A stretch of DNA of 64,000 bases. Source: Thermodesulfobacteriota bacterium (GTDB taxonomy: Bacteria; Desulfobacterota; Desulfobacteria; Desulfobacterales; SURF-7). The stretch covers positions 274,622 to 338,621 of the forward strand of contig JBMORA010000001.1 in the NCBI GenBank assembly GCA_049320885.1, in the 5' to 3' direction. How positions within the stretch are numbered: the first letter of the stretch is position 1; each line of letters starts with the position of its first letter. The position numbers and the translations under genes are program-made. Shown here in pieces: positions 31,060 to 50,693 of this stretch. A model generated the notes under the pieces. It was not told the origin of the DNA. It searched no databases and saw only the letters and a list, made by a program, of their open reading frames with translations.

Positions 31060-34000
31060 TCATCCTAAAGCGGTCATGGCTGTCATGTCGTCAAAAAAGG
31101 CATGGGATTTGGCCAGCAGTTGTTCATCCGTAAAATGCTGCAAGGTGATCACCTTGGCCGGGCATTCCGCTGCGCAGATGCCGCATCCATGGCATTCCGC
31201 CGCCTCAATGACGGCCCGCCCTTCTTTCACCCTGGGAACGCCGTAGGGGCAACTGCGCACACAGACGAGGCAGCAGGCGCAATGATCCGGATCCCGCACA
31301 TGGGCAACGACGCCGCCCACGCGGATCCCGTCCCGGGCCAGCAGGGTCATGGCCCGGGCCACGGCGGCCCGGGCCTGGGCGATGGTCTCGTCCAGGGACT
31401 TGGGGTAATGGGCCAGGCCGGCCATAAAGATGCCTTCCGAGGCGAAATCCACGGGCCGCAGCTTGGCATGGGCTTCCACCAGAAATCCGTCGCTGTTCAC
31501 CGGCACCTTGAAAAGTTCAAACAACTCCCGGTTCTCGTTGGGCAGGATCGCCGAGGCCAGCACCAGCAGATTCGGCTGAAGCGTCACGGTCCGGTTCAGG
31601 ATGTGGTCTTTCCCGCTGAGGGTCATCCGCTTGTCTTCAGACAGCGTGACCTCGGGAGGCTCCTGCTCGTCATGGCGGATGAAAATGACTCCGGCCCGGC
31701 GCGCCTCGGTGTAAAGCGTTTCTCGGAAGCCGTAACTGCGGATGTCCCGGTAGAATACGAAAACGGCGGTTTCCGGCTTCATCGCCTTGATGGAAAGGGC
31801 GGATGTCAAGGTATGGGTGCAGCATACCCGGCTGCAATAGGGCCGCTCCGCCGTGCGCGAGCCGACGCACTGAATGAAGGCGACGGTGCCAGCCTTGCGG
31901 ACCCGTTCCGGCTCGCGCTCCATGACCGCATCCAGCTCCAGATGGGTCAGGATGTCCGGATGATCGCCGTAATGAAACTCCTCCGGACGGCGCTCCCGTC
32001 CGCCGGTGGCCAGGATGACAGCGCCGTGCTTGACGGCCATGGAGGTCAGCCGCCCTTTCCCGGTGATCAGTTCAGTCTTGAAATTCCCCAGGATGCCGCT
32101 GAAATCCACGGTTTCAGTGTGTAGGAAGAGACGCACCCGGGGATTCTTGTGGATCCGCCGGATCAGGTTCTCCACATAAAACCGGACTTCTTCCCCCTGC
32201 CAGGTCCTGGACAACCCCAGCGCCACACCGCCCAATTCCCCCGATCGTTCCACCAGATAGGTCTGGTACCCCTGGTCGGCCACTCCCAGGGCCGCTTCCA
32301 TACCGGCTACGCCGCCGCCGATCACCAGCACCGAAGGCTCCACGCCCAGGGTGACCTGGTGCAGGGGTTCGATATGGGCCGCCTTGGCCACCGCCATGCG
32401 CACCAGATCCTTGGCCTTGGCCGTGGCCGTTTCCGGCTGGTGCATGTGCACCCAGGTGTTCTGGTCGCGGATATTGGCCATTTCGAACAAATACGGGTTC
32501 AAGCCCGCTTCCCGAATGGTTTCCTGAAACAACGACTCATGGGTTCTGGGCGAACAGGAGGCCACCACCACCCGGTTGATGCCCTTTTCCACCAGCACCT
32601 GTTTCATGCGGTCCTGGTTGTCCTGGGAACAGGTGAAGAGGTTGTCTTCCACATGCTCCACATGGGGCAGGTGGCGGGCATACTCCCGCACGGCGGGAAC
32701 ATCGGCCACGCCGCCGATGTTGATGCCGCAATTGCAGACAAAAACGCCGATGCGCGGGGGCTCGTTGGAAAAATCTTTTTCCGGCGGCAGTTCCCGTACC
32801 CGGGTCAGGGAATTCCGGACCGGCGCCAGCAACCGGGCCGCGTCGGCCGCCGCCGCCGAGGCTTCCATGACGGACTGGGGAATGTCCTTGGGTCCCTGGA
32901 AAGCGCCGCAGACGAAGACTCCCTGCCGTGAGGCGCTCACCGGCGCCAGATCTCCCGTGCGAGCGAAACCGTGTTCATTGAGTTCGATGCCGAGGACCCC
33001 GGCCAGACGCACGGAGCCCGCAACGGGCGTAAGGCCGACGGATAACACCACCATATCGAAAATCTCTTCCACGATTTCTCCGGCCTCCGTCACATAACGC
33101 AAGCGCAGATTGCCGTCGGGCATGGGCTCCACCGTATGCACCCGGGAACGGATGAAGCGGATCCCGTGCTCTGCTTCCGCCCGCCGGCAGTAGCGGTCGA
33201 ATTCCTTGCCGAAGGTCCGCAGATCCATATAAAACACCGCTGCATCCAGCGGTTTGACGCTGTGTTCCTTGGCGATGACAGTCTGCTTGGCGGCGTACAT
33301 GCAACAGACCGAGGAGCAGTATTCGTGATCGCATTGGTTGATATCCCGGGAGCCCACGCACTGCAGCCAGGCGATTTTGTCCGGCTCCCGATGATCCGAC
33401 GGCCGGACCAGATGCCCCTGGAAGGGACCGGAAGCGGACAGCAACCGCTCGAATTCCAGGCTGGTGACCACATTGGGATGGGTCGCATAGCCGTACGGCG
33501 CATGGGGACCGGGATCGAAAGACACAAATCCCGGCGCCAGGATGATGGCGCCAACGGCAATGGTGGTCCGCAGGGGCCGCATGTCGTGATTCACGGCCTT
33601 GGCCAGGCAGGCGTCCACGCATTGGAGACATTCCGAGCAATATCCGCAATTCAGGCAACGCTCTGCTTCCATCCGCCCCTGATCCGGGGTGTAGCCGAGT
33701 TCCACCTCCCTGAAATTGCCGCGGCGCTCCGGGAGAGGCAGCTCCGGCATGGCTGCGCGGACCTTGACCGGCTCACCTTCCGGAACGGATCGGTGGACCG
33801 GATTGTCCGGAACCATTTTTTCCCTTCCCGCGGCCAGGTCCCGGCCGTCCAGATACCGGATAATGGATTCGGCGGCCTCCCGGCCGGCGGCAATGGCGCC
33901 GATGGCGATCCATGGTCCGGTCTGCAGATCGCCGCCAGCAAAAACGCCTTTTCTTGCGGTTGCGAAGGTCACGGGATCCGTCGCCACCGTGCCCCAACGG

Positions 34001-35538
34001 GACAAAGAGACTCCCGCAGCGTCCTCCAGGGCTGATATATCGGGGCGCTGGCCGATGGCCGGAATGAGCTGGTCGATCTCCATATCGTATTCGCTGCCTG
34101 GCACGGGCACCGGCCGGCGACGCCCGGATGAATCCGCATCGGTCAATTCCATGCGGATGCAGCGCAATCCGACGACCTCGCCGTCCTGAACCAACACCTC
34201 CTGGGGCGCCGTCAGGTATTCGATTCTTACGCCCTCGGACTCCGCGGCCCGGATTTCCTCCTCCCAGGCCGGCATTTCCGCCCGCGTCCTGCGATAAAGG
34301 ATGGTCACTGCCCCGGCTCCCAGGCGCACGGCGGAGCGGGATACATCGACGGCCACATTGCCGCCGCCGATGACGGCGAGCCGTCGGCCCGCCTTGATGG
34401 TGCCGGCGAGATTCAGCTCTCGCAAAAAATCCACACCCTGGATAACTCCGTGGGCCTTTTCGCCGGGAATTCCCAGTTGAATACCCTGGTGGGCGCCCAT
34501 GGCCAGATAAACCGCCTGATAGCCACTGGCGAACAGGTCGTCGATGGTCCGATCCGGTCCCAGGGGGGAATTACAATGAATTTCCACCCCTAAATTGGTG
34601 ATGACCTCGATTTCCCTGTCCAGAACCTCGGGGGGCAGGCGATGATCCGGAATCCCCACCCGCAGCATGCCGCCCGGTTTTGGAAGTGCTTCGTAAATCA
34701 CCGAACGGATCCCTTTTCGGGCCAGATGGTAGGCGGCGGACAGGCCAGCCGGACCGGAGCCGATAATGGCGACTTTTTCCGGTCGATCCTTCAACCGGGG
34801 AATGTCGATTTTGCGTGGATCGTATTGATCGGCCGCCAGACGCTTCAAGTCGCGGATGGCCAGGGGCTTGTCCACTTGGCAGCGGCGGCAAGCCTCTTCG
34901 CAACCATGCGGGCAGATCCGCCCGAGAACTCCCGGCAGGGGCAGTTCCTCCATGATGATGCGCAGGGCCTCGGCGTATTTACCCTGTTTCACCATCTGAA
35001 CGTAGCCCTGGACATTCAAACCGGCCGGGCAGGCCAGACGGCAGGGGGCCTTGTCCGCTTTCTCGATGGCATAGCCGCCCGGCATGCCCTGGGGATAGAG
35101 TTTATAGGCGGCCTTGCGGGTTTGCAATCCCTGGTCGAATTCGCTGGGCAGGGTCACCGGACAGACCTTGGCGCATTCGCCGCAGGCCGTGCATTTATCA
35201 AGCTCCACAAACCGCGGTTGAACTATCAGGGTAACCTGAAAATTTCCGGCCTCGCCGCTGACGGTTTCGACTTCCGCGAGGGTGTGGAGATCGATATTCA
35301 GGTGCCGGCCAGCCTCCACCAGTTTCGGTGAGACGATGCACATGGAGCAGTCGTTAGTGGGGAAGGTTTTGTCCAATTGGGCCATGACGCCGCCGATGGC
35401 CGACCGGCTCTCCACCAGATGCACCAGAAATCCGGCTTCCGCCAGATCCAGGGAGGCCTGGATCCCGGCGATGCCGCCGCCCACCACCATCACCGCTCCA
35501 ACCGCTTTCTGTTTGTCCAAATCGGGTACCTGCGTCAT
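31060..35538 (-). CDS. hdrL: HdrL-type large heterodisulfide reductase A (HdrA with an inserted GltD-like NAD(P)H/FAD module)
   Basis: GGGIAG..LDKTFPTNDCSMC HdrA N-terminus; inserted APCRLACP..GRICPHGCE..IGSGPAGL..GGGNVAVD module; duplicated QCVGSR HdrA cores; C-terminal ferredoxin; AGGAGG RBS. Confidence 0.9.
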   Translation of the reverse strand: MTQVPDLDKQKAVGAVMVVGGGIAGIQASLDLAEAGFLVHLVESRSAIGGVMAQLDKTFPTNDCSMCIVSPKLVEAGRHLNIDLHTLAEVETVSGEAGNFQVTLIVQPRFVELDKCTACGECAKVCPVTLPSEFDQGLQTRKAAYKLYPQGMPGGYAIEKADKAPCRLACPAGLNVQGYVQMVKQGKYAEALRIIMEELPLPGVLGRICPHGCEEACRRCQVDKPLAIRDLKRLAADQYDPRKIDIPRLKDRPEKVAIIGSGPAGLSAAYHLARKGIRSVIYEALPKPGGMLRVGIPDHRLPPEVLDREIEVITNLGVEIHCNSPLGPDRTIDDLFASGYQAVYLAMGAHQGIQLGIPGEKAHGVIQGVDFLRELNLAGTIKAGRRLAVIGGGNVAVDVSRSAVRLGAGAVTILYRRTRAEMPAWEEEIRAAESEGVRIEYLTAPQEVLVQDGEVVGLRCIRMELTDADSSGRRRPVPVPGSEYDMEIDQLIPAIGQRPDISALEDAAGVSLSRWGTVATDPVTFATARKGVFAGGDLQTGPWIAIGAIAAGREAAESIIRYLDGRDLAAGREKMVPDNPVHRSVPEGEPVKVRAAMPELPLPERRGNFREVELGYTPDQGRMEAERCLNCGYCSECLQCVDACLAKAVNHDMRPLRTTIAVGAIILAPGFVSFDPGPHAPYGYATHPNVVTSLEFERLLSASGPFQGHLVRPSDHREPDKIAWLQCVGSRDINQCDHEYCSSVCCMYAAKQTVIAKEHSVKPLDAAVFYMDLRTFGKEFDRYCRRAEAEHGIRFIRSRVHTVEPMPDGNLRLRYVTEAGEIVEEIFDMVVLSVGLTPVAGSVRLAGVLGIELNEHGFARTGDLAPVSASRQGVFVCGAFQGPKDIPQSVMEASAAAADAARLLAPVRNSLTRVRELPPEKDFSNEPPRIGVFVCNCGINIGGVADVPAVREYARHLPHVEHVEDNLFTCSQDNQDRMKQVLVEKGINRVVVASCSPRTHESLFQETIREAGLNPYLFEMANIRDQNTWVHMHQPETATAKAKDLVRMAVAKAAHIEPLHQVTLGVEPSVLVIGGGVAGMEAALGVADQGYQTYLVERSGELGGVALGLSRTWQGEEVRFYVENLIRRIHKNPRVRLFLHTETVDFSGILGNFKTELITGKGRLTSMAVKHGAVILATGGRERRPEEFHYGDHPDILTHLELDAVMEREPERVRKAGTVAFIQCVGSRTAERPYCSRVCCTHTLTSALSIKAMKPETAVFVFYRDIRSYGFRETLYTEARRAGVIFIRHDEQEPPEVTLSEDKRMTLSGKDHILNRTVTLQPNLLVLASAILPNENRELFELFKVPVNSDGFLVEAHAKLRPVDFASEGIFMAGLAHYPKSLDETIAQARAAVARAMTLLARDGIRVGGVVAHVRDPDHCACCLVCVRSCPYGVPRVKEGRAVIEAAECHGCGICAAECPAKVITLQHFTDEQLLAKSHAFFDDMTAMTALG

Positions 35539-35584
35539 CGTCCCTCCTGCCAAGGCCAGATCGTGTCGTGCGTTTCTGGAATGT

Positions 35585-36022
35585 CTAACAGGCGGCCGCC
35601 GCTTCCTCCACCTTTCTCCTCTGGGTTGCCGGACCAAGAGTCTTCACCGCCGCGATCACCTGGTTGGCGACTTCGGCGAATTTGACCCCTTCGGCGGAAG
35701 AAATCCAGGAGAAATGCAGGCGTCCGGGCTCCACGCCGGTATGTTCCAACAAATTTTTCAGCAGGGCGAATTTACGGCGGGCATAGTAATTGCCAGTGAG
35801 ATAATGACAATCACCGGGGTGACACCCGGAAACCCAGACCCCGTCGGCGCCCTTGCGCAGGGCCGCAAGGATCAGTTTCGGACTGATCCGTCCGGAACAG
35901 GGCACCCGGATCACCCGCATGTTGGGCGGGTACTGAAACCGGCTCACCCCGGCCAGATCAGCGGCGCCGTAACTGCACCAGTTGCATAAAAACGTAATGA
36001 TCTTCGGTTCGAAATCGTTCAT
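35585..36022 (-). CDS. mvhD: MvhD-type [2Fe-2S] subunit (copy 1)
   Basis: FLCNWCSYGAAD, VPCSGRI and GCHPGDCHY motifs. Confidence 0.93.
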   Translation of the reverse strand: MNDFEPKIITFLCNWCSYGAADLAGVSRFQYPPNMRVIRVPCSGRISPKLILAALRKGADGVWVSGCHPGDCHYLTGNYYARRKFALLKNLLEHTGVEPGRLHFSWISSAEGVKFAEVANQVIAAVKTLGPATQRRKVEEAAAAC

Positions 36023-36050: not shown

Positions 36051-39000
36051 TCACGCGCATTCGATCATCGCCATAATCTGAGATTCCTCGAAACCTTTTA
36101 ACCGCAATGCTCCGGAGCGGCAGGAAGCCACGCAGGCCCCGCAACCCTTGCAGAGCACCGGATTGATTTCCGCCCTGCCCGCAAAGGGGCCGTCCGTCCT
36201 CAGAGAGGGCGCGTTGTAGGGACAGACGGCCACACAAACCCCGCAGCCGCTGCAATCCATTGGCGCCGAATACGCCACGGTTCCGCTGGTGCGGATGGTT
36301 TTCTGGGCCAGCAACCGGGTGGCGCCGGAGGCGGCGGCCTGGGCCTGGGCGATGGATTCGTCAATGGGCTTGGGATAATGGGCCAGTCCGCACAGGAACA
36401 CGCCGTCGGTGGCGAAATTGGAGGGGGCCAGTTTGACGTGGGCTTCGGCGAAAAAACCGTCGGCGTTCATGGGTACCTTGAAGAAGCGGGCCAGTTGTTC
36501 GTCCCTGTACGGCAAAACCGCCGCGGCCAGGGTCAGCAGATCGGCCTCGATCCGCAGCGGTTTTTTCAGGATATGATCCAGGACTTCGATTTCCAGACCG
36601 TTTTCCGCAACCCGCACCCCGGGTTTGTTCTCAAGGCTGAAACGGATGAAAACAACGCCTATTTCCCGGGCCGTCTGATACAATTTCTCGCGCTCGCCGT
36701 AGGTGCGGATATCCCGGTACAACACGAAAACGTTCATCTCCGGATTCATTTCCTTCAGATGGATCGCCGCGGCCACGCTGTGGGTGCAACAGATCCGCGA
36801 GCAGTATGGTCTTTGCGGCTCCCGGGAACCCACGCATTGAATAAAGACCGCCGTCTTCACCTCCCGGAGGGCTGGATCGCGTCGGCGCAGCCTTTCATCC
36901 AATTCCAGGGCGGTGAGCACCCGCGGGTCGTCGCCATAGCCGTATTCCGCGGGAAGGCTTTCCGTGGCGCCGGTGGCGATGACGGCCACTCCGTGGCGAA
37001 TGGTTTCCGTCCTGCCCGCCTGGTCCACGGTGGTGTCGAAATTGCCCACGAATCCGTCCACCCGGGTCAATCGGGCTTTCAGCAGGACGCGGATGCCGGG
37101 ATGGTTGGTGACGGCGATGCGGATCGCATCCAGACCGTCCTGAACCGATTCCCCCCAGGCGGTCTGGTACAACCGGTTGGCCTGCCCCCCCAGTTGACCT
37201 TCCCGTTCGATCAAGTGAACCGGATACCCCTGATCCGCCAAGGCCAACGCGGCGCTCATGCCGGAGAGTCCACCGCCGATCACCAGCGCATTTGGGTCGA
37301 TTTCCAGCTGGGCCTCCTCCAACGCCTGGTATTGGGCGACCTTGGCCGCAGCCATGCGCACCAGGTCCTTGGCTTTTTCCGTGGCGGCCAGAGGATATTC
37401 CTTGTGCACCCAGGAGCCATGGTTGCGGATGTTGACCATTTCAAACAAGTATTTGTTCAGTCCGGCGTTCAGCAGGGTTTCCTGGAATAAGGGATCGTGT
37501 GTTCTGGGCGTACAGGCGGCCACCACGATACGGTTCAGGTTCTTTTCCTCGATCAGACGGCTGATGGCGTCCTGGGTGTCCTGGGAACAGGAATACATGT
37601 TGTCGCTGACGTATTCCACAAAGGGCAATCCGGCTGCGTAATCGCGCACCGCGGGCACGTCGATGACGCCGCCGATGTTGATGCCGCAATGACAGACAAA
37701 CACCCCGATGCGGGGCCGTTCACCGTAAATGGTACGCTCGGGCCGCGGGGTGCTGGCGCGGGTCAGGGCATAGCGGCTGCCGGAAAGCGAAATACCAGCC
37801 CGCATGGCGGCCGCTCCGGCCTCCACGACGGTCTGGGGGATGTCCTTTGGGCCCTGGAAAGCGCCGCACACATAAATCCCCGGCCGGGAAGTCGACACCG
37901 GATCGAAAGAAGTAGTCCGGCAAAATCCGGAATCCGTGAGGGATACCCCCAGCTTGCCCGCCAGGCCGCGGACATCTTCCTGAATTTCCATACCAACGGA
38001 CAGGACCACGATATCGAAAACCTCCCGGGTCCACTTGCCGGTTTGCTCATCCATGTAGTCCAACACCTGACCTTTTCCCTCGCCGGTTTCGGGAAAGACC
38101 GAATGGACCTTGCAGCGCACAAAGCGGATGCCGTATTTCTCCCGGGCCTCGTTGTAGCAACTTTCAAAACCCTTCCCGTGGGTACGCATGTCCATATAGA
38201 AAATGGCGCATTCCAGATCCGGTTCATGCTCCTTGGCGATGATGGCCTGTTTAATGGCGTACATGCAGCAGACCGAGGAGCAATGGCTGTTGTCGCAGGT
38301 ATTCAAATCGCGGGAACCCACGCATTGCAGCCAGGCGATACGTTTGGGCTCCGCATGGTCGGACAGGCGCACCACGTGGCCCTGGTTGGGCCCCGAAGCC
38401 GACAGCAGGCGTTCGAATTCGATGGAGGTGACCACATCCGGATTGTTGTCATAGGAATAGATCAGTTTCCCCGCGGGATCATAGGCCTTGAATCCGGGAG
38501 CCAGAATGATGGCCCCTACATTCAGGATGATATTCCGATCCTTGTCGTCATAGTTGATGGCTCCCGCCGGGCAGGCCTTTTCACAGTTGCCGCATTTCCC
38601 CTTAGTCATGCGGATGCAATACCGCTCATCGATCGCATATTTTAATGGAACAGCCTGGGGATACTGGACATAAACGGCCTTGCGTTTGATCAGGCCCCGG
38701 TTGTACTCGTCGACGACTTTTTTGGGGCATTTTTCGGCGCAGGCGCCGCAGGCGATGCATTTTTCCATGTCCACGTAGCGGGCCTTGCGGAAGACATCCA
38801 CCTGAAAATTTCCCTGCTCGCCGCTGACATCCTTGATTTCCGCCAGGGTGATCAGTTCGATGTTCATATGCCGGCCCACCTCCACCAGCTTGGGGGACAT
38901 GATGCACATGGAACAGTCATTGGTGGGGAAGGTTTTGTCCAACTGGGACATGACGCCGCCGATGGAAGCGTTCTTCTCGATCATGTAGACATAATAACCG

Positions 39001-39083
39001 GAATTGGCCAGATCCAGGGCTGCCTGGATACCGCCGATGCCGCCGCCGGCGATCAGGACTGCTCCCGTGGTTTGCTTTGACAT
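36051..39083 (-). CDS. hdrA: Heterodisulfide reductase subunit A family protein (about 1010 aa)
   Basis: LDKTFPTNDCSMC, QCVGSR twice, CSSVCCMY, VFVCHCG, ferredoxin motifs. Confidence 0.93.
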   Translation of the reverse strand: MSKQTTGAVLIAGGGIGGIQAALDLANSGYYVYMIEKNASIGGVMSQLDKTFPTNDCSMCIMSPKLVEVGRHMNIELITLAEIKDVSGEQGNFQVDVFRKARYVDMEKCIACGACAEKCPKKVVDEYNRGLIKRKAVYVQYPQAVPLKYAIDERYCIRMTKGKCGNCEKACPAGAINYDDKDRNIILNVGAIILAPGFKAYDPAGKLIYSYDNNPDVVTSIEFERLLSASGPNQGHVVRLSDHAEPKRIAWLQCVGSRDLNTCDNSHCSSVCCMYAIKQAIIAKEHEPDLECAIFYMDMRTHGKGFESCYNEAREKYGIRFVRCKVHSVFPETGEGKGQVLDYMDEQTGKWTREVFDIVVLSVGMEIQEDVRGLAGKLGVSLTDSGFCRTTSFDPVSTSRPGIYVCGAFQGPKDIPQTVVEAGAAAMRAGISLSGSRYALTRASTPRPERTIYGERPRIGVFVCHCGINIGGVIDVPAVRDYAAGLPFVEYVSDNMYSCSQDTQDAISRLIEEKNLNRIVVAACTPRTHDPLFQETLLNAGLNKYLFEMVNIRNHGSWVHKEYPLAATEKAKDLVRMAAAKVAQYQALEEAQLEIDPNALVIGGGLSGMSAALALADQGYPVHLIEREGQLGGQANRLYQTAWGESVQDGLDAIRIAVTNHPGIRVLLKARLTRVDGFVGNFDTTVDQAGRTETIRHGVAVIATGATESLPAEYGYGDDPRVLTALELDERLRRRDPALREVKTAVFIQCVGSREPQRPYCSRICCTHSVAAAIHLKEMNPEMNVFVLYRDIRTYGEREKLYQTAREIGVVFIRFSLENKPGVRVAENGLEIEVLDHILKKPLRIEADLLTLAAAVLPYRDEQLARFFKVPMNADGFFAEAHVKLAPSNFATDGVFLCGLAHYPKPIDESIAQAQAAASGATRLLAQKTIRTSGTVAYSAPMDCSGCGVCVAVCPYNAPSLRTDGPFAGRAEINPVLCKGCGACVASCRSGALRLKGFEESQIMAMIECA

Positions 39084-39159: not shown

Positions 39160-40467
39160 CTAGTATCCCGGCAGATTCACTTCCGCCAAATCCGGCCCAA
39201 GATAGGCGCGTTCGTTTTCACCCAGGATGCCCAGGGAAAGCGCGATGATCGTCCACAAATGCACCGTCCGATACGCTCCCTTGCCGAAATGATGCCCCAA
39301 CTCATCAATCTGGGCATGACAGTTATGGCACGGCGTAATGACATAGGGTACGCCGGTGCGGCTGATCTGCTCATGTTTCAGTCTCCCGTAATGCAGCCGG
39401 GCATCCTTGAAACCGGACTGAAGATAGCCGCCGCCACCGCCGCAACAGTAATTGTTGGATTTGTTCGGCCACATCTCGATGACATTCTCCGCCCCCACGC
39501 AGGCTGCCGTGACAAAGCGCAGTTCATCGGCCAGGGTGTCGCCGAAGCCCTTGCGCACCTGGTTGCAGGGATCCTGAACGGTGAATTTCACCTGCAGTTC
39601 CTTGTTCCAGGAAGCATCGACCTTGAGCTTTCCCTCCCGGATCCATTTGGCGTAGTAGGAAACCATGGGGGCGATCTCCAGGTCGGTTTCGATCTTGTGC
39701 CGCTTCTGCCCCATCCAGACCGAAAACGTGGAATGACCGCATTCGGTGTTCAGGTATACCTTGCACCCTAAATTCATGGCCTGTTTCAGGGTCTTTTCCG
39801 TGATGGTCTTCCAGCCCTCGTCATCGGCCAGGAACATGCAATAGTTCTCGCCGCCCCAGCCGGTGCAGCTGTAAGTCCAATCCGCGCCGGAAAGGTGCAG
39901 GATCTTCCAAAGGGGCGCCATTTCCTCGGGTTCGGTGACCGGTTCCCGAGAATTCTGACTCAAAAAGAAATGCGCTCCCTGCTTGTCGATGGGTGCTTCC
40001 AGGTTTTCCCAGCCCGGCTGGTTGGTCCGGACTTCCTCCAGCATATCCTCCACCACAAACCGGAAATCCTCCTCCGGGGTCCCCATGGCGCTGCAGCTGT
40101 CGTTCTTCAGGGCCATGTCGCAGGACCCCAGAATCCCCTTGGGCCGTTCTTCCCGGGGCCACAATTTGCGGCCCTCGAACACCATGGCGGCGATATCGAT
40201 GTTCATCGGACAGACATAACTGCAACGCTTGCACATGCTGCACAGCCAGACCCAGGGATGTTTGGTCAGTTCCCGGTCCATTCCCAACGCCACCATGCGG
40301 ACGAATTTGCGCGGGTCCATGTCTTCCAGACCGGAGGCTGGGCAGCCCGATGCGCAAGCGCCGCAGGTCAAACATAAATTCAGATTGGCGCCCTTGGGCA
40401 ATATGCTCAACAGCTTGTTTTTGAATTGCGGTTTCCAGTCTTTTTGAATCACGATCGGATCATTCAT
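39160..40467 (-). CDS. HdrD-like (HdrC-type 4Fe-4S plus CCG domain) Fe-S protein
   Basis: CLTCGACASGCP, CSMCKRCSYVCP, NTECGH, QDPCN, YCCGGGGG, PCHNC. Confidence 0.88.
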   Translation of the reverse strand: MNDPIVIQKDWKPQFKNKLLSILPKGANLNLCLTCGACASGCPASGLEDMDPRKFVRMVALGMDRELTKHPWVWLCSMCKRCSYVCPMNIDIAAMVFEGRKLWPREERPKGILGSCDMALKNDSCSAMGTPEEDFRFVVEDMLEEVRTNQPGWENLEAPIDKQGAHFFLSQNSREPVTEPEEMAPLWKILHLSGADWTYSCTGWGGENYCMFLADDEGWKTITEKTLKQAMNLGCKVYLNTECGHSTFSVWMGQKRHKIETDLEIAPMVSYYAKWIREGKLKVDASWNKELQVKFTVQDPCNQVRKGFGDTLADELRFVTAACVGAENVIEMWPNKSNNYCCGGGGGYLQSGFKDARLHYGRLKHEQISRTGVPYVITPCHNCHAQIDELGHHFGKGAYRTVHLWTIIALSLGILGENERAYLGPDLAEVNLPGY

Positions 40468-40664
40468 CCTGCTTTCCTTTCCCATATCGAAATAAATCCT
40501 CACCGGTATCCTGGAGCATCCATGAAGGACATGTTCCGGAGACCGATCTCTTGGCGTAAACGACGGGCGCGGCAGCGCTGAAAAAATGCCGAATGGTAAC
40601 AGCCAGTCTGAATCACCGAATGAAAAAAAGGAAACGCAGGAAAACGGAATCGATCTTCAGGCCG

Positions 40665-40736
40665 CTACTTCACCACCTGCCGAACCCGGGCAGGCACGCT
40701 GCAACACGCTCAAGTAAAGCCTGTAAACCGATGCAT
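40665..40736 (-). promoter_or_regulatory. Putative Sec-containing leader peptide MHRFTGFT(U)ACCSVPARVRQVVK with SECIS-like hairpin, upstream of the hdr operon
   Basis: GGGAG RBS (40746-40742), ATG at 40736, in-frame TGA at 40712-40710, hairpin CCTGCC-CGGGTTC-GGCAGG (40694-40676) 15 nt after the TGA, TAG at 40667-40665; homologous to the leader at 40969. Confidence 0.75.
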
Positions 40737-40830
40737 GGAAACTCCCGAAAGGACTTGCCGTACCCACTCCATGCGGCAATGCGCCGCACAGGCAATGGAA
40801 CGGATGGATTCACGCAATAAATTCCGGGTC

Positions 40831-40860
40831 GTCATAGCATGAAATCCGGCGGCGTATCAA
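40831..40860 (-). promoter_or_regulatory. Possible sigma70 promoter for the hdr leader/operon
   Basis: Minus strand TTGATA-N18-TATGAC with an extended TG; the -10 is imperfect. Confidence 0.35.
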
Positions 40861-40968
40861 ATCGATAGTTTCAATGCATATGTTTTTCCGGATTGGAATT
40901 ATCAATTTGACCATTTCCGGATATCCATAATAAGAAGCATGACCATCGAATCGAAGCAGGAGCTGTCC

Positions 40969-41044
40969 ATGCAGACATTTTTCGGCTTTACCTGAGGGTT
41001 GTTGGAAACTGCGCCGAGTTGCGGCGCTGGGGTACGGCTGAAAA
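40969..41044 (+). promoter_or_regulatory. Putative Sec-containing leader peptide MQTFFGFT(U)GLLET... with SECIS-like hairpin, upstream of selC*-selB*
   Basis: AGGAG RBS (40958-40962), ATG at 40969, in-frame TGA at 40993-40995, hairpin GCGCCG-AGTTG-CGGCGC (41011-41027) 15 nt after the TGA; the read-through frame stays open to 41286. Confidence 0.75.
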
Positions 41045-41108
41045 TCACCATCGAATCGATTGTTCCCGGTTTTTTCCGGCGCCGGCGCCCCATGCAAGAA
41101 CAGATGAC

Positions 41109-41200
41109 AGGGGCAATGGTGCTGGGCACCCCGCGGTCTTCAAAACCGTCGGCCTCGCCTGAAAATCGAGGAGGAGGTTCGATTCCCCTTGCCCCTTCCA
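41109..41200 (+). tRNA. selC*: selC*-type tRNA with UCA anticodon (tRNA-Sec-like 8/4 fold, probably Cys-accepting)
   Basis: 8-bp acceptor AGGGGCAA/TTGCCCCT, discriminator T41197 then CCA, D arm GGTGC/GCACC, anticodon arm GCGGT-CTTCAAA-ACCGT, long variable arm CCTCG/CGAGG, 4-bp T stem GG(A)GG/CCCC with a bulged A. Confidence 0.9.
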
Positions 41201-41225
41201 AACCAGGAAAACCGTTTCGAACGCT

Positions 41226-43151
41226 ATGGACAGATATTATACCATCGGTGTGGCCGGCCATGTGGACCACGGCAAGACTTCCCTGATTCGCTGCCTGACG
41301 GGTATCGATACGGACCGCCGGACGGATGAAAAACTCCGCGGCATCTCCATCGATGCGGGGATCGCGCCGCTGGATATGCCCGACGGACACCGTATCGCCC
41401 TGGTGGATGTGCCCGGGCATACGGATTACCTGAAAAACACCGTGCGCGGACTCCATGCCGTCGACAGCGCGGTTCTGGTGGTGGCCGCCGATGACGGCAT
41501 CATGCCCCAGACAGTGGAGCATCTGGAAATTTTACGCTTTTTCAAGGTCAGCAAGGGGTTCGTAGTATTGAGCAAGACCGATCTCGTGGATCCGGAAACC
41601 AGGGAAATAGCCATGCTGGAAATCGAGGATGCCGTGAAGGGGACTTTTCTAGAGGGCTGCCCCATCGTCCCCTTCTCTGCTGTCCAAGGCGCAGGCAGGG
41701 AGGAAGTCCTGCAGCAGATCATCCAAACCACCGATGACGAAAAACGAACCGTGACGAAAGATTTTTTCCGGATGTGGATCGATCAAGTGCGGATCCGCAA
41801 GGGATTCGGAACCGTAGTCAGCGGGACAATCCTGTCCGGCAGCCTTCGCAAGGACGACGCGGTTCAACTGTTGCCGGCCGGAACCGTCGTCCGGGCGCGG
41901 ACCATCGAATCCCACGGCCGCAGCATCGAACAGGCCTGTCCGGGACAGCGCGTGGGCGTTAATCTGCACAAAATACCGGCAACCGATGTCGTCAGGGGAA
42001 TGGCCCTGTCGCAACCGGACGCCATCATTCCAAGCTATCTGCTGAATGCGGATCTCCGACTTCTCGGCAACACCGGGAAAAATCTGAAAAGCCGACAACG
42101 GGTGAAACTGCACATCGGCGCTTCCGTCACCAGCGCCATGATCGTTCTCATGGATGCGAAGGAACTGACGCCGGGCGGACAATGCCTGGCCCAGTTGCGC
42201 CTGCTGAAACCGGCGGCCGCAAGGTCACGCGATCCTTTTGTAGTCACCCCGCTGAACCGCAATACCGTCATCGGCGGCGGAACCGTTCTGGAACCGACAC
42301 AGGAGAAATACCGTAGCGCCAAATCGGCCGGAATCGTTCCGATGCTGTCGGCTCTCCGGAGCGGCAATCTTGCCGGATATTTGGATTTGTTTTTCGGCCA
42401 TCAGCAAACCCACGCTTTCTCCGCCCGGGAACTCACGGAAAAGACCGGATGGCCTCTCCCGCAACTCGAAGCGGAAATCAACGCCCGGGTGCGGAAAGGG
42501 GACCTGATTTATATCAAGGGGCTGGGCGCCCTTGCAAAAACGGAGTTCCGCCGACTCAAGGACGAAGTCCTTTTCTCCGTCGAAAGGCTTTTCCAGAGCA
42601 ACGCCGCCAAAAAAATCATCCATGAAAAGGAGATCGCCCATGATTTGTCCGCTCTTCTGGAAGAAAAACTGCTGCAAGGCATCATCGAGGAATGGTGTCA
42701 TGATGAAAAACTGACAAAAACCGGGGGCGGATTCCTCAACCCGTATTACAATGAGGCTCCGGCCACGGTTCTTTCCCCTCAGATGGAACAAACGATCCGG
42801 CTGCTCCTGGAGCATGCCCGGTCCAGCGGAATGTCGCCTTTCAGCGCCGACAGTTTCTGGAAGGCTCACGAAAAAAAACTGAACAAGCCGAGAGTCCAGC
42901 AGGCCATGGAATACCTGGCCGAGCGGAAACAGTTGATCCGCCTGCGGGACAACCGTTTTCTCGATCCGGAATCCCTGGAAATCATCAAGGAACGGGTCAG
43001 AAGCGCCATCCAGGCCAAAGGCTTCATCACCTTATCAGACAGCAGGGAAATATTAGGATACGGCCGCTGGGGCGGGGCGCCGGTATTGGACCATCTGGAT
43101 AAAATCGGCTTCACCGTCCGGATCGGGGACAAACGCCTGATCCGGCAATGA
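41226..43151 (+). CDS. selB: SelB-family elongation factor, divergent paralog (SelB*)
   Basis: GHVDHGKT, DVPGH, VAADDGIMPQT, KGFGTVVSG motifs and C-terminal winged-helix region; 641 aa; starts 25 nt after the UCA tRNA. Confidence 0.92.
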   Translation: MDRYYTIGVAGHVDHGKTSLIRCLTGIDTDRRTDEKLRGISIDAGIAPLDMPDGHRIALVDVPGHTDYLKNTVRGLHAVDSAVLVVAADDGIMPQTVEHLEILRFFKVSKGFVVLSKTDLVDPETREIAMLEIEDAVKGTFLEGCPIVPFSAVQGAGREEVLQQIIQTTDDEKRTVTKDFFRMWIDQVRIRKGFGTVVSGTILSGSLRKDDAVQLLPAGTVVRARTIESHGRSIEQACPGQRVGVNLHKIPATDVVRGMALSQPDAIIPSYLLNADLRLLGNTGKNLKSRQRVKLHIGASVTSAMIVLMDAKELTPGGQCLAQLRLLKPAAARSRDPFVVTPLNRNTVIGGGTVLEPTQEKYRSAKSAGIVPMLSALRSGNLAGYLDLFFGHQQTHAFSARELTEKTGWPLPQLEAEINARVRKGDLIYIKGLGALAKTEFRRLKDEVLFSVERLFQSNAAKKIIHEKEIAHDLSALLEEKLLQGIIEEWCHDEKLTKTGGGFLNPYYNEAPATVLSPQMEQTIRLLLEHARSSGMSPFSADSFWKAHEKKLNKPRVQQAMEYLAERKQLIRLRDNRFLDPESLEIIKERVRSAIQAKGFITLSDSREILGYGRWGGAPVLDHLDKIGFTVRIGDKRLIRQ

Positions 43152-43202: not shown

Positions 43203-44480
43203 ATGAGCGAAGAGTATACAAGCATGTGGCAATCGTTGGGACTCGACCTGGCTGCCCATGACGCCTTGCTGAATGTCCTGGGGCAGGCCTACCAGGACAT
43301 TTACCTGGCCCAGAAGAACCGGCCCGATGGAATGAAGTACTTCGACTTCGTGATGAGCGAAGTCCATGGCCTGCGCATCAAGGAACTGCTGGAGGAGAAA
43401 GCGGCTGGCAGAAAAATCGTCGGCAGTTATTGCGTCTTCGTTCCGGAGGAAATCGTGCTGGCGGCCAACGCCACCCTGGTGGGCCTGTGCGCCGGAGCCG
43501 ATTTCGCCCTGGAGGAGGCGGAAAAACTGCTGCCGCGCAATACCTGTTCCCTGATCAAATCCACCTTCGGCTTCAAACTGGGCAAGGTCTGCCCCTATCT
43601 GGAATCCGCCGACATGGTGGTGGGGGAGAACACCTGCGACGGCAAAAAGAAAGCCTACGAAATTTTGGACACCCTCATTTCCAACTTGTATGTCATGGAT
43701 CTGCCCCAGGTGAAATCCGTCGCCGGACGCGAACTCCTGAAAACCGAATACTACCGATTCAAGGCAGCCCTGGAAAAACTGACGGGCGTTACCGTGGATA
43801 AGCAGGCCCTGGAAAAAGGTATCAAAACCGTCAACGAAAAACGCAAGGCTGTTCACCGCCTGAACCGGCTGCGCGCCGCCGACCCGGCCCCCATATCCGG
43901 CCTGGACGCCCTGTTGGTCAATCAGGTGTTTTTCTATGACAACCCGGCCCGCTTCACTTCCTCCGTGAACATGATCTGTGACGAACTGGAGGGCCGCATC
44001 CGGGAGAAGTCCGGCATTTCCTCCGGAAAGCGTCCCAGAATCCTGGTATCCGGCTGTCCCATGGCCGTGCCCAACTGGAAACTTCCCTGGATTGTGGAAA
44101 CCTCCGGCGCGGTCATCGTGGGTGAGGAATCCTGCGTGGGCGAACGCGGCAGCAGAAACCTGGTGAACGGGGACGGCACTACCCTGGATGATCTGATGGA
44201 AGCCGTCATCGACCGGTACTTCGCCATCGACTGCGCCGTGTTCACGCCCAATCAAAGCCGGCTCGATCATATCGTTGAAATGGCCGCCGCCTACAAGGCG
44301 GACGGCGTCATTCACTATGGCCTGCAATTTTGCCAACCCTATTTGATGGAGTCCCTGCCCGTTGAAAAAGCCTTGAAGGATAAAGGGATTCCGGTCCTGC
44401 GGGTGGAAACCGACTACGGCCCGGAAGACGCCGGTCAGCTCAAGACCCGGGTGGAGGCCTTCCTGGAGATGCTCAAATAA
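43203..44480 (+). CDS. 2-hydroxyacyl-CoA dehydratase D-component family protein, double-cubane cluster protein-like reductase
   Basis: GSYCVFVPEE, GLCAG, LPRNTC, ENTCDGKKK, SGCP, EESCVG, IDCAVF, QFCQPY, ETDY, TRVEAF. Confidence 0.85.
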   Translation: MSEEYTSMWQSLGLDLAAHDALLNVLGQAYQDIYLAQKNRPDGMKYFDFVMSEVHGLRIKELLEEKAAGRKIVGSYCVFVPEEIVLAANATLVGLCAGADFALEEAEKLLPRNTCSLIKSTFGFKLGKVCPYLESADMVVGENTCDGKKKAYEILDTLISNLYVMDLPQVKSVAGRELLKTEYYRFKAALEKLTGVTVDKQALEKGIKTVNEKRKAVHRLNRLRAADPAPISGLDALLVNQVFFYDNPARFTSSVNMICDELEGRIREKSGISSGKRPRILVSGCPMAVPNWKLPWIVETSGAVIVGEESCVGERGSRNLVNGDGTTLDDLMEAVIDRYFAIDCAVFTPNQSRLDHIVEMAAAYKADGVIHYGLQFCQPYLMESLPVEKALKDKGIPVLRVETDYGPEDAGQLKTRVEAFLEMLK

Positions 44481-48050: not shown

Positions 48051-50693
48051 TCAGAGATGGTTGTACCGTGGCTGATCGGATACTTCGGACACCGGAACAC
48101 CCGTATCCAGCACTTCCGGCAGACGCCCCAGATTTCCGGCCGGCAACCGGGGAAAACCGCTCACCAGTGAAACGGTCACCGAAGCCACATAGGGCACGGC
48201 GAGCATCAACAGAACGATGATCCAGAGGTGCAAATCCAGCGTCATGGAATTGGATCGCAGGCTGACACCCACGGCCCCCGCCAGCAGGAGGATCAATATG
48301 GTCAGCTCCTGTCCCGCTGAAAACAGCGCCTGCATCAGGGCCGGCCGTCCGGTCAGTTTGGGTGTCCTGAAAAACGGCAGTTGGCTGCTGAAGAATCCCA
48401 AAAGAACGGCCTTGGCGATGGTATGGGCCAGCGCCAGACCGGCCAGTCCCCCCGCTATCGTCTGAACAAGAGACGCCTGCATCCGCTTGCGGTACAGATA
48501 GACCATCTTGACGGCCTTGAAGGAAAAGAGCGCAATGGGCAGCAGCGACAGTTCCATCAGGGGCGGATCCACTTTCTTGGGCGCAATGATCATGGCCAGG
48601 GACCAGACCAGCGCCGCCAGGGTAAAAATGAGATTGAAGCCGTCGGCGATCCAGGGCAGCCAGCCGGCGATGAAATGATAGCGCTGACCATTGCTCAAAT
48701 GGCTCGTATCCTTGCCGAAGAACTCCCGGGTGTGCCGTCTCAATATCTGGATGGCGCCATAGGCCCAACGGAAGCGCTGCTTCTTGTAATCCATGTAGGT
48801 GTCCGGCATCAAACCGCGGCCATAGCTTTTGGGAATATAGACCGAATCATAGCCGTGCTCGAAGATGCGCAGACCCAATTCCGCATCCTCGGTGATGCAC
48901 CACTCGCCCCAGCCGCCGGATTCTTCCAGAACCGAGCGCCGGACAAGGGTCATGGTGCCGTGCTGGATGATGGCGTTACGCTCGTTCCGGGTAACCATGC
49001 CGATGGAGAAAAAAGCCCGGTATTCCGCATAACACATGGCTTTGAAGGCATTCTGGTCGGCGTCACGGTAATCCTGGGGCGCCTGCACCAGGCCGATCTC
49101 CGGATTGGAAAACTGGGGAACCAGATCCCGCAACCAATCCGGCCGGACCAGATAGTCGCTGTCGATGACGGCGATGATTTCGGCCCGCTCGTCGGTCCGC
49201 TCCAGAGCGTAATTCAAGGCTCCGGCCTTGAATCCCGAAAGCGGCGCCACATGGAAAAAACGGAACCGCGAACCCAGTCCGGCGCAATGCGCCTCGACCG
49301 GCCGCCACACATCGGGATCCACGGTGTTGTTGTCAATGACAAGGACTTCGAAATTCGGATAATCCAGTCCGGCCAAGGCATTGAGCGTCTCCTTGAGCAT
49401 TTCCGGTGGTTCATTGTAGGCCGGCACATGGATGGAAACCATGGGTAGCCGCTCATCCGGCAGTTTCAAGGCGCTGAACGCCCGCCGGCGCTTCGTCACC
49501 CACAGGGCTTCCGCCCATTCATGGGCTTCGGTGAGCAGCACCATGATCACCCCCACCATCCCGACGAACATAAAGAATCCCACCATCACGGTGGCCAGGG
49601 TCAGATACTGATGGATGTATTCATACACAATCCATACGGCGCCGGTGGCGGCGCCGAAAGCGATCACCGCCAGGAAACTACGGCCGCGGCCGCGCAGGGT
49701 CTCACTGTCGATCAGCAGCAAGGCCAGGGTGACGGCTGCGATAACCACCGAAATGGCCGCCAGGAAATACCAGTGGGGAATGGGGACTATGGGCTTTTTG
49801 AACGGGAATTTGGGTTTTCGGTAAGCATCGTAGACCCCCCAGTAGGCACCCACCGCGCCTTCGGTGTCCTTTTTCCAGGGCTGGTCAAATGCTTCCATGA
49901 TATAATACAGGTAATTTTCCTGCTCCGCGCGGTGCAAAAACCGTCTGAGAAATATCGCCTGGTTGGCTTCGGAGGCCACCGCCGACCGGCGCGTCCGCCC
50001 GTTGCTGGGCCAGCCGACCTCGGTGATCACCAGCGGCTTGTCAGGGTATAGCTTCTTCAGCTTGTTCATATGGTCGACGATGTAATCGACAGCCAGGTCC
50101 ACATGAATTCCTTCCCAGTAGGGCAGCATGTGAATTGCTATAAAATCGACATGTTCTGCCAGTTCAGGGTGTTTTACCCAGACGTGCCATGGTTCGGCGG
50201 TGCTCACCGGCACCTGGACATTCCGGCGCACCCGCTCGATGTATTCGATCAACTGCTCGATGGGAACATCCGCCCGCAGGACCACTTCGTTGCCCACGAT
50301 GATCCGGACGACATTCGGGCAGCCGGGGGCGACCTGCAACAACCGTTCAATTTCCCTTTCGTTGTTGGCGAGCCGGGTGTCGATCCAGGCGCCCATGGTG
50401 ACATTGATGTTATGCTTTTGTGCCAGATACGGTATGTTGGCCAGCACGTCTTCCGTTGTGTAGGTTCGGACGGCATGGGTCTTGCCCTTCAGCAGAGCCA
50501 GATCGGCATCGATCTCGGCCTCGCTGGGGAAATTCTTGGTCAACGGACTTTGGGAGGCCTGGATGGGTGAAAAGGAAAAACCCGGAATGATCGCCGGCCA
50601 GGCGGGTTCCTGCTCCGGCCGGTTCATGTAGCCCCAGATGGAAAAAGTCAAAACGGCCACGGCAATACCGATCAATATGTTGGATCGCATCAT
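48051..50693 (-). CDS. NdvB-like GH17 plus GT2 membrane glucan synthase
   Basis: VGNEV and ITEVGWP GH17 motifs; HVPAYNEP, KAGALN, IDSD, ITED and QRFRW GT2 motifs; transmembrane helices. Confidence 0.88.
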   Translation of the reverse strand: MMRSNILIGIAVAVLTFSIWGYMNRPEQEPAWPAIIPGFSFSPIQASQSPLTKNFPSEAEIDADLALLKGKTHAVRTYTTEDVLANIPYLAQKHNINVTMGAWIDTRLANNEREIERLLQVAPGCPNVVRIIVGNEVVLRADVPIEQLIEYIERVRRNVQVPVSTAEPWHVWVKHPELAEHVDFIAIHMLPYWEGIHVDLAVDYIVDHMNKLKKLYPDKPLVITEVGWPSNGRTRRSAVASEANQAIFLRRFLHRAEQENYLYYIMEAFDQPWKKDTEGAVGAYWGVYDAYRKPKFPFKKPIVPIPHWYFLAAISVVIAAVTLALLLIDSETLRGRGRSFLAVIAFGAATGAVWIVYEYIHQYLTLATVMVGFFMFVGMVGVIMVLLTEAHEWAEALWVTKRRRAFSALKLPDERLPMVSIHVPAYNEPPEMLKETLNALAGLDYPNFEVLVIDNNTVDPDVWRPVEAHCAGLGSRFRFFHVAPLSGFKAGALNYALERTDERAEIIAVIDSDYLVRPDWLRDLVPQFSNPEIGLVQAPQDYRDADQNAFKAMCYAEYRAFFSIGMVTRNERNAIIQHGTMTLVRRSVLEESGGWGEWCITEDAELGLRIFEHGYDSVYIPKSYGRGLMPDTYMDYKKQRFRWAYGAIQILRRHTREFFGKDTSHLSNGQRYHFIAGWLPWIADGFNLIFTLAALVWSLAMIIAPKKVDPPLMELSLLPIALFSFKAVKMVYLYRKRMQASLVQTIAGGLAGLALAHTIAKAVLLGFFSSQLPFFRTPKLTGRPALMQALFSAGQELTILILLLAGAVGVSLRSNSMTLDLHLWIIVLLMLAVPYVASVTVSLVSGFPRLPAGNLGRLPEVLDTGVPVSEVSDQPRYNHL

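Follow-up and report, generated by a model that had tools for sequence, protein, structure and literature searches.

A putative leader-peptide attenuator that senses selenocysteine decoding upstream of selenocysteine-machinery and cysteine-isoenzyme genes in Desulfobacterota

We analysed a 64,000-nucleotide (nt) stretch of the genome of a Thermodesulfobacteriota bacterium (Desulfobacterales, SURF-7; assembly GCA_049320885.1, contig JBMORA010000001.1, positions 274,622 to 338,621), referred to below as the window. A 500-bp region in it separates two divergent operons and holds two small mirror-image modules. Downstream of the plus-strand module lie the gene for the selenocysteine (Sec) tRNA, tRNA-Sec, and then selB; downstream of the minus-strand module lie genes for an HdrD-like protein, an HdrA-like protein and a 1525-amino-acid open reading frame (ORF). 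Each module is a leader consisting of an eight-codon ORF that ends in UGA, a hairpin resembling a selenocysteine insertion sequence (SECIS), and a closing stem that joins a 5' arm within the ORF (arm A) to a 3' arm beyond the hairpin (arm B). Very probably, this element is a cis-regulator that depends on Sec decoding. The fuller reading, which we favour with some reserve, is that it is a leader-peptide attenuator that senses Sec decoding and is ON when the UGA goes unread.

We found that the two leaders belong to a family. Sequences similar to their intergenic DNA occur in two genomes of the same genus and in a small number of others, all with the ORF, the UGA, the hairpin and the closing stem. 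An exact-pattern scan derived from the ORF, covering one genome per species (about 185,000 species), gave 83 matches in 81 stretches. We judged 73 of these to be real, nearly all of them in Desulfobacterota, with carriers among the Desulfobacterales, Desulfatiglandales, Syntrophobacterales, Syntrophales, Desulfomonile and Desulfarculaceae. Carriers with public records include Desulfosudis oleivorans, Desulforhabdus sp. TSK, Desulfobacterium sp. N47 and species of Desulfobacter. A few bins with other taxonomic labels carry a near-identical element sequence, which may reflect mis-binning. Ten matches without a hairpin 3' of the pattern (L020, L021, L029, L037, L055, L056, L062, L068, L085 and L080) were dropped as chance or truncated, and a third match in the window's own genome (L003) proved to be a chance occurrence at the 3' end of an opposite-strand gene. 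The seed alignment comprised 65 copies, after three poorly aligned rows (L031, L035, L038) and five near-duplicates (L033, L049, L082, L088, L090) had been left out. The covariance model built from it was run on two samples of 151 genomes each and detected the element in 41 genomes of the order sample and in 11 of the phylum sample. Carrier genomes hold one to four copies, and the window's own genome has exactly two. About 115 distinct copies were collected in total, three false regular-expression matches (L080 twice, and one at window position 50079) having been removed before these copies were counted. The family consensus is a Shine-Dalgarno sequence, an eight-codon ORF reading M-x-x-F-F-G-F-T, UGA, the SECIS-like hairpin and the closing stem.

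To describe the short ORF, we used the copies found by the covariance model in whole genomes. The standard eight-codon frame is present in 63 of these 69 copies, the other six differing by one or two codons in either direction, and the residue counts that follow refer to the 63. The start is ATG in 61; a Shine-Dalgarno-like 4-mer lies within -18 to -4 of the ATG in 95 of the 115 copies collected. Position 4 is Phe in 47 copies and Asp in nine, and position 5 is Phe in 56. Gly6 is retained in 62 copies through the codons GGC, GGT and GGA, Phe7 in 61 through TTT and TTC, and Thr8 in 59 with all four ACN codons in use. Because the codons vary synonymously under fixed amino acids, the leader peptide appears to be under selection on top of the RNA pairing. 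The stop is UGA in all 63 copies, and never UAA or UAG.

Across the family, the hairpin lies 14-16 nt past the UGA (14-15 nt in the window's two copies; the minus hairpin begins at 14 nt when its outer G-U pair is counted). Bacterial SECIS hairpins carry G/U in a small apical loop. For comparison, eight bona fide Sec codons in this genome (four in HdrA, two in HdrD-like and two in FdhA genes) have GC-rich hairpins with small G-rich loops 11-16 nt past the UGA. The leader hairpins match these in spacing and shape and are, in this sense, SECIS-like. The genome also contains both selB and tRNA-Sec, as SelB-dependent use of a SECIS requires. From the sequence, we infer that Sec could be inserted at the leader UGA and that ribosomes would stall there. 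The frame past the UGA is exactly 10 codons long in 57 of the 115 copies, where it usually stops at a UAG within the hairpin's 3' strand, and is otherwise 2-96 codons long (one element, not tied to a locus, has 53); in the minus leader of the window, the stop of this frame (UAG, 40667-40665) falls within arm B. Thus, among the 115 copies, there is no conserved coding frame continuing past the UGA of the kind that accompanies a selenoprotein SECIS.

An earlier model-generated note on this DNA, here called the original prediction, had described the closing stem in both window leaders, with compensatory differences between them. The pairing is as it described: in the plus leader 13 of 14 positions pair, with two G:U pairs and one U/C mismatch, and in the minus leader 5 bp and 4 bp flank a small internal loop. 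The minus stem is part of the minimum-free-energy fold calculated with ViennaRNA; the plus stem appears in a 230-nt ViennaRNA fold and is absent from the 156-nt minimum-free-energy fold. Because the MAFFT alignment of the family was not in structural register, we defined the structure by hand as three helices and counted pairs: P1 joins codons 4-6 to the distal 3' arm, P2 joins the Thr codon and the first two bases of the UGA to a CAGG-type tetramer, and P3 is the hairpin. Of the cells in the structure-blind MAFFT alignment (65 copies), 92.5% were paired, compared with 33-58% when the partner column was slid by 1-3. Since the copies in this set had been found with a pattern that prescribes most of the 5' arm, the 69 model-found copies provide the better test, although their alignment was fitted to the covariance model and leans toward the structure. 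In these copies 89.6% of cells were paired, and 8 of the 9 pairs of the outer stem P1 had changed on both sides (for example, U-A to G-C, A-U or C-G, and C-G to U-A). Doubly changed cells numbered 98, compared with 26.6 in shuffles, and 0 of 500 shuffles reached as high a count. The predicted covariation is therefore borne out in homologues. The suggestion that the G-F-T codons serve both as peptide and as RNA helix also appears to hold, since the amino acids are kept with synonymous changes and arm A covaries.

The same note had proposed that the closing stem is a switching helix. Our results support this proposal and extend it, as arm B has a second, mutually exclusive partner, segment D, which lies beyond the coordinates first noted. 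When the leader codons were blocked in silico, arm B paired with D. Over 114 copies, the median duplex energy was -17.45 kcal/mol for B:D and -17.55 kcal/mol for A:B, and B:D compared with dinucleotide shuffles of the downstream DNA gave a mean z of -1.32. With a fixed 24-nt B and the following 70 nt, the mean z was -1.62 and 48% of copies fell below -1.64, whereas the controls gave 0.02 and 3% (upstream DNA) and -0.12 and 12% (DNA 250 nt further downstream). A copy's own D beat foreign D segments, taken from elements whose B was <60% identical, by 3.6 kcal/mol on average, and ranked within the best 5% for 25% of copies. The gap between B and D is steady at about 30-45 nt across the family. 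In addition, differences in D between subfamilies track those in B, even for the stretch of B that is left as an internal loop in A:B. We read A:B and B:D as probable mutually exclusive helices of the 1:2 / 2:3 type known from trp.

The C/U-rich tracts noted downstream of both leaders are likewise a family feature (G 12-19%, C 24-29% at +75 to +150 from the ATG; 112 copies), and the tract forms the loop between B and D in the alternative hairpin. The observation that no classical terminator follows also stands: we found none on the relevant strands between the window leaders and their genes. An intrinsic terminator (hairpin plus U run) that could serve as the attenuator output was not found in the window; only a U6 follows D of the minus leader. 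The genome has a rho gene (PF07497 match of 123.9 bits in a 415-amino-acid open frame). Because rho is present and the window lacks an intrinsic terminator, Rho is the likely agent; whether its loading at the C/U tract would be the output step is, judged from the sequence, close to an even call. The level at which the output acts is indicated by the position of tRNA-Sec, which lies directly 3' of 26 of the 115 leaders, about 130-220 nt from the ATG, even before porin or MvhD genes. With a tRNA gene behind the leader, the output would have to act on the transcript and not on translation initiation.

We next consider the protein genes that the leaders precede, which were tallied by Pfam family behind 110 leaders. 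The first gene encodes SelB in 16 cases, an HdrD-like protein in 16 (plus 4 Fer4-only fragments), an HdrA-like protein in 10, MvhD/FlpD in 8, an HGD-D protein in 8, a Molybdopterin/FdhA-like protein in 6, DUF1573 in 6, Porin_O_P in 5, a YedE-like Sulf_transp protein in 4, Rhodanese in 2 and [FeFe]-hydrogenase in 2; three other families occur once each, and 20 first genes have no Pfam family. We then asked which residue the leader-linked enzymes carry at their catalytic sites. All 60 distinct sites checked have cysteine: 31 in HdrA (32 of 32 motif occurrences), 24 in HdrD-like proteins (24 of 24) and five in FdhA (5 of 5). In the window, the HdrA-like protein has Cys at a site that is occupied by an in-frame UGA, accompanied by a SECIS, in four paralogues encoded by this genome. 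Cys243 of the HdrD-like protein corresponds to a UGA in three paralogues; both FdhA genes of this genome are of the Sec type. None of these UGA-containing paralogues (four HdrA, three HdrD-like, two FdhA) has a leader. Five other leader-bearing genomes gave a similar picture: 20 of the 32 closest HdrA homologues contain one UGA, none of them on a leader contig, and a leader precedes 6 of the 12 homologues that have no UGA. That the leader-linked enzymes are Cys versions throughout is the decisive observation. The HGD-D family (resembling the D component of 2-hydroxyglutaryl-CoA dehydratase) has no UGA-bearing paralogue in the window's own genome, and its place in the regulon is unexplained.

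These findings suggest how the element might work. A ribosome would translate the eight-codon ORF and reach the UGA, with the hairpin sitting where a SelB-binding SECIS would be. With its A site on the UGA, this ribosome would occlude arm A. If SelB-GTP-Sec-tRNA were plentiful, Sec would be inserted and the ribosome would continue for a few codons to a stop at the edge of, or inside, arm B; where the frame is 10 codons long, this is the 5' edge. It would mask B while D is made and then depart, upon which A:B would form and leave the C/U tract and D single-stranded; transcription, or survival of the transcript, would then end before the downstream genes, most likely through Rho. If Sec decoding failed, the ribosome would linger on the UGA, its mRNA channel occupied by arm A, B:D would form, the C/U tract would be locked in the loop of that hairpin, and RNA polymerase would read on. 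Switched on in this way would be tRNA-Sec and SelB (a homeostatic feedback), the Cys isoenzymes (HdrD-like, HdrA-like and, in relatives, FdhA and MvhD) and candidate selenium-uptake genes. The F-F-G-F-T peptide might slow RF2 at the UGA. That it is an arrest-type peptide which holds the ribosome at the UGA and SECIS, so that the waiting time flips the switch to a selenium-starvation regulon, is a proposal on which we are evenly divided.

Several points weigh against this attenuator model. Single-sequence folding compared with shuffles was not significant for the whole fragments (z = -0.20 and +0.06), so the case for more than chance rests on the relatives. RNAalifold, which had been suggested as a check on homologues, did not recover the A:B stems from the MAFFT alignment (73 copies, whole element) and returned two small unrelated helices only. 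The B:D helix is less firmly established than A:B. In a structure-blind MAFFT alignment running from B to D, most subfamilies are out of register, and only 14 of the 58 rows accommodate 12 or more of the 17 pairs in a single register; the case for B:D is thus indirect and consists of energy statistics and visible co-differences. As a Rho utilization site the C/U tract is modest, being about 75 nt long with G at the proportion given above and lying in part inside the B:D loop. Moreover, RF2 competes at the UGA, so the model needs slow termination. Finally, the sign of the response (ON under Sec shortage) is one that we infer from gene content and feedback logic only.

We favour ON under Sec shortage because Cys backups are needed only without selenium, because a negative loop on tRNA-Sec and selB corrects itself, whereas a positive loop would have no way out of the OFF state, and because Methanococcus maripaludis, according to passages of a report on it (PMC11097638), induces Cys isoforms together with YedE and solute-binding transporter genes on selenium depletion. 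The opposite sign would result if Sec readthrough kept a ribosome on the leader and blocked Rho (relief of polarity), so that the genes were ON with selenium. We consider this unlikely, but some features fit it. In the plus leader, the post-UGA frame stays open for 96 codons, into and through tRNA-Sec, and the plus-type leader of locus L084 has a similar long open frame, as judged by eye. In the minus leader and one subfamily, D runs into a stretch of U; there B:D could terminate transcription, and the sign would then be the opposite one. There is also a precedent in Treponema primitia, whose fdhF transcript is completed in a selenium-dependent manner through an in-gene UGA, as described in passages of a report on that species (PMC3892789). 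In contrast, the 57 of 115 copies that end 10 codons past the UGA stop before the C/U tract, so that most ribosomes could not shield it. Expression of the leader-linked enzymes, Cys versions at every one of the 60 sites, only when Sec is plentiful makes little sense, and positive feedback on tRNA-Sec and selB would again be unable to restart from OFF.

Two further explanations were considered. The hairpin could serve SelB as an operator or decoy within a leader that is not translated, as in E. coli selAB; the short ORF and its UGA would then be incidental. A SECIS-like hairpin does precede selB, and SelB autoregulation has a reported precedent. Yet this explanation, which we regard as very improbable, leaves the conservation of the start codon, Shine-Dalgarno sequence, ORF length and amino acids (with synonymous codon changes) unaccounted for, together with the invariance of the UGA and the placement of the switch's 5' arm exactly within the ORF; and since a tRNA gene follows, translational repression of the adjoining cistron is excluded as the output. 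Alternatively, there could be no switch, and the closing stem could be merely the lower stem of an extended SECIS that aids Sec insertion into a tiny selenopeptide with a role of its own. The pairing of the UG of the UGA in P2 would suit such an arrangement, and the UGA of E. coli fdhF lies in the lower SECIS stem as well. However, the sequence and length past the UGA are unconserved (2 to 96 codons), arm B has a specific second partner, and the element always precedes selenium-related operons, in one to four copies per genome; we therefore give this possibility hardly any weight.

The attenuator model shares much with trpL, hisL and pheL: a short ORF with a sensing codon, strand 1 inside that ORF, mutually exclusive 1:2 / 2:3 helices, a leader stop that lets the finishing ribosome mask strand 2, and a regulon that serves the supply of the sensed residue. 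Unlike those leaders, the element would sense through one recoded stop that needs SelB and a SECIS hairpin instead of through a run of sense codons, a release factor would compete with decoding, no hairpin-plus-U terminator is found in the window, and replacement enzymes and a tRNA gene belong to the regulon as well. The model also resembles the Rho-dependent leader-ORF switches tnaC-tnaA, mgtL-mgtA and corL-corA, in that where a ribosome stands on the leader ORF would decide whether Rho can reach a G-poor, pyrimidine-rich tract. In addition, tnaC works at a UGA stop codon, and its nascent peptide is conserved; the signal in the present case would be Sec-tRNA delivery and not free tryptophan, proline or Mg2+. 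Thanbichler and Bock, cited in PMC3892789, reportedly described, in 2002, a SECIS-like element in the 5' leader of E. coli selAB mRNA that mediates SelB autoregulation. That element likewise places a SECIS-type hairpin before selenocysteine-machinery genes for negative feedback via SelB, but it is not known to have a leader ORF, UGA or alternative helices, and its output is reportedly translational.

In Treponema primitia, according to passages of the report, selenium controls transcription of fdhF(Sec) by translational coupling, so that UGA/SECIS decoding decides whether transcription continues, as we propose here (PMC3892789). There, however, the UGA is the catalytic codon of an enzyme gene and selenium turns transcription ON, whereas the present element is a dedicated eight-codon leader before Cys-type genes. 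The HrsM system of Methanococcus maripaludis shares the induction of Cys isoforms and transporters by selenium depletion; passages of its report present HrsM as a LysR-type protein repressor and state that the sensing step and its signal are unknown (PMC11097638). Unlike the element described here, that system is archaeal and has no leader RNA. Our full-text literature searches returned no description of such a leader. In a 2026 selenoproteome review (PMC13188914), the portions reached by term search contain no mention of leader, attenuation, riboswitch or SECIS-like.

Read in this way, the system is a variant of leader-peptide attenuation with a coherent, previously unrecognised selenium regulon. 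How selenium status is sensed is an open question, and the element offers a concrete, testable sensor, namely the act of decoding UGA as selenocysteine. If the model is true, it would be the first attenuator with stop-codon recoding as its sensing step, would widen the range of signals known for leader-peptide attenuators to include such recoding, and would give a direct molecular answer to how bacteria measure selenium status; the element could also serve as a reporter of Sec-insertion capacity. The regulon, defined from sequence alone, pairs selenoproteins with cysteine backups in sulfate reducers and syntrophs, a group of environmental importance. It also nominates candidate selenium-uptake genes (YedE-like, porin, solute-binding protein and rhodanese) and several unknown proteins. 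The parts of the two window leaders and the genes around them are listed in Table 1.

Table 1. Features of the two leaders and of the divergent operons, in window coordinates
Feature	Position	Strand	Basis
Plus leader, Shine-Dalgarno-like AGGAG	40958..40962	+	sequence
Plus leader ORF, 8 codons M-Q-T-F-F-G-F-T, then UGA (40993-40995)	40969..40995	+	covariance-model match, 53.5 bits
Plus leader, arm A (5' arm of closing stem), codons 4-8	40979..40992	+	A:B duplex, -21.5 kcal/mol
Plus leader, SECIS-like hairpin, 6-bp GC stem, 5-nt loop, starting 15 nt past UGA	41011..41027	+	folding
Plus leader, arm B (3' arm of closing stem)	41031..41044	+	pairing with A
Plus leader, B-D spacer, within G-poor pyrimidine-rich tract	41045..41070	+	
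Plus leader, segment D, alternative partner of B	41071..41096	+	B:D duplex, -22.6 kcal/mol, gap 25 nt
tRNA-Sec gene (selC), anticodon UCA	41109..41200	+	ARAGORN; Rfam RF01852, 52.3 bits
selB, selenocysteine-specific elongation factor	41226..43151	+	Pfam GTP_EFTU, SelB-wing_3, Beta-barrel_SelB
HGD-D family gene, 3' of selB	43203..44480	+	Pfam
Minus leader, Shine-Dalgarno-like GGGAG	40742..40746	-	sequence
Minus leader ORF, 8 codons M-H-R-F-T-G-F-T, ATG at 40736, UGA 40712-40710	40710..40736	-	covariance-model match, 65.3 bits
Minus leader, arm A	40712..40723	-	folding
Minus leader, SECIS-like hairpin, 6-bp stem (and possible outer seventh G-U pair), 7-nt loop CGGGUUC	40676..40694	-	folding
Minus leader, arm B	40658..40670	-	pairing with A
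Minus leader, G-poor C/U-rich B-D spacer	40606..40657	-	
Minus leader, segment D; six U next (40585-40580)	40586..40605	-	B:D duplex, -18.9 kcal/mol, gap 51 nt
HdrD-like Fe-S/CCG protein gene, cysteine version (Cys243)	39160..40467	-	Pfam
HdrA-like flavoprotein gene, cysteine version	36051..39083	-	Pfam
1525-amino-acid ORF with second HdrA-type motif, also Cys	31060..35637	-	motif comparison

Some minor features of the locus were also recorded. A 13-nt direct repeat on the plus strand flanks the plus leader, with one copy just 5' of its Shine-Dalgarno sequence (40942-40954) and the other just 3' of arm B (41047-41059). The divergent promoter region, 232 nt between the two leader ATGs (40737-40968), contains repeated TTCCGGAT-like motifs, which are possible transcription-factor sites serving both leaders, and one sigma-70-like match on the minus strand (40927-40898). 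An Rfam scan of positions 39500-42000, with E up to 10, placed only tRNA-Sec above threshold and gave nothing credible on the leaders. A crude screen for selenoprotein genes within the window yielded candidates that were all false, being an antisense frame or a normal TGA stop.

Among the relatives, the first genes without a Pfam family (for example at L024, L025, L026, L043, L044 and L063) encode proteins of 118-470 amino acids, most of them 118-210, which are candidates for selenium-related functions. Full tRNA-Sec genes lie about 130-260 nt past the leader ATG at L033, L049, L088, L094, L128, L131 (two copies) and L022, and the next protein gene at such leaders encodes a porin, MvhD or an Fe-S protein. 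Locus L131, in genome G063, has two units of leader plus tRNA-Sec, and some genomes seem to have several selC copies. At L082 and L009, degenerate tRNA-Sec-like sequences without an ARAGORN call lie about 150-230 nt past the ATG, preceding a porin gene and an HdrD-like gene, respectively. At L108, ARAGORN calls a 92-nt tRNA of tRNA-Sec size with a GCA (Cys) anticodon, 270-361 nt past the leader ATG, which we take to be, perhaps, a tRNA-Sec-shaped tRNA-Cys of the kind reported for Deltaproteobacteria. Finally, an in-frame UGA in the context C-G-V-U-T-x-T-H, with a hairpin next to it, occurs outside the window on contig C8 of the same genome (minus strand, scan offset 14330). This gene is a candidate selenoprotein gene, whose UGA context resembles the N-terminal metal-binding motif of [NiFe] hydrogenase large subunits.

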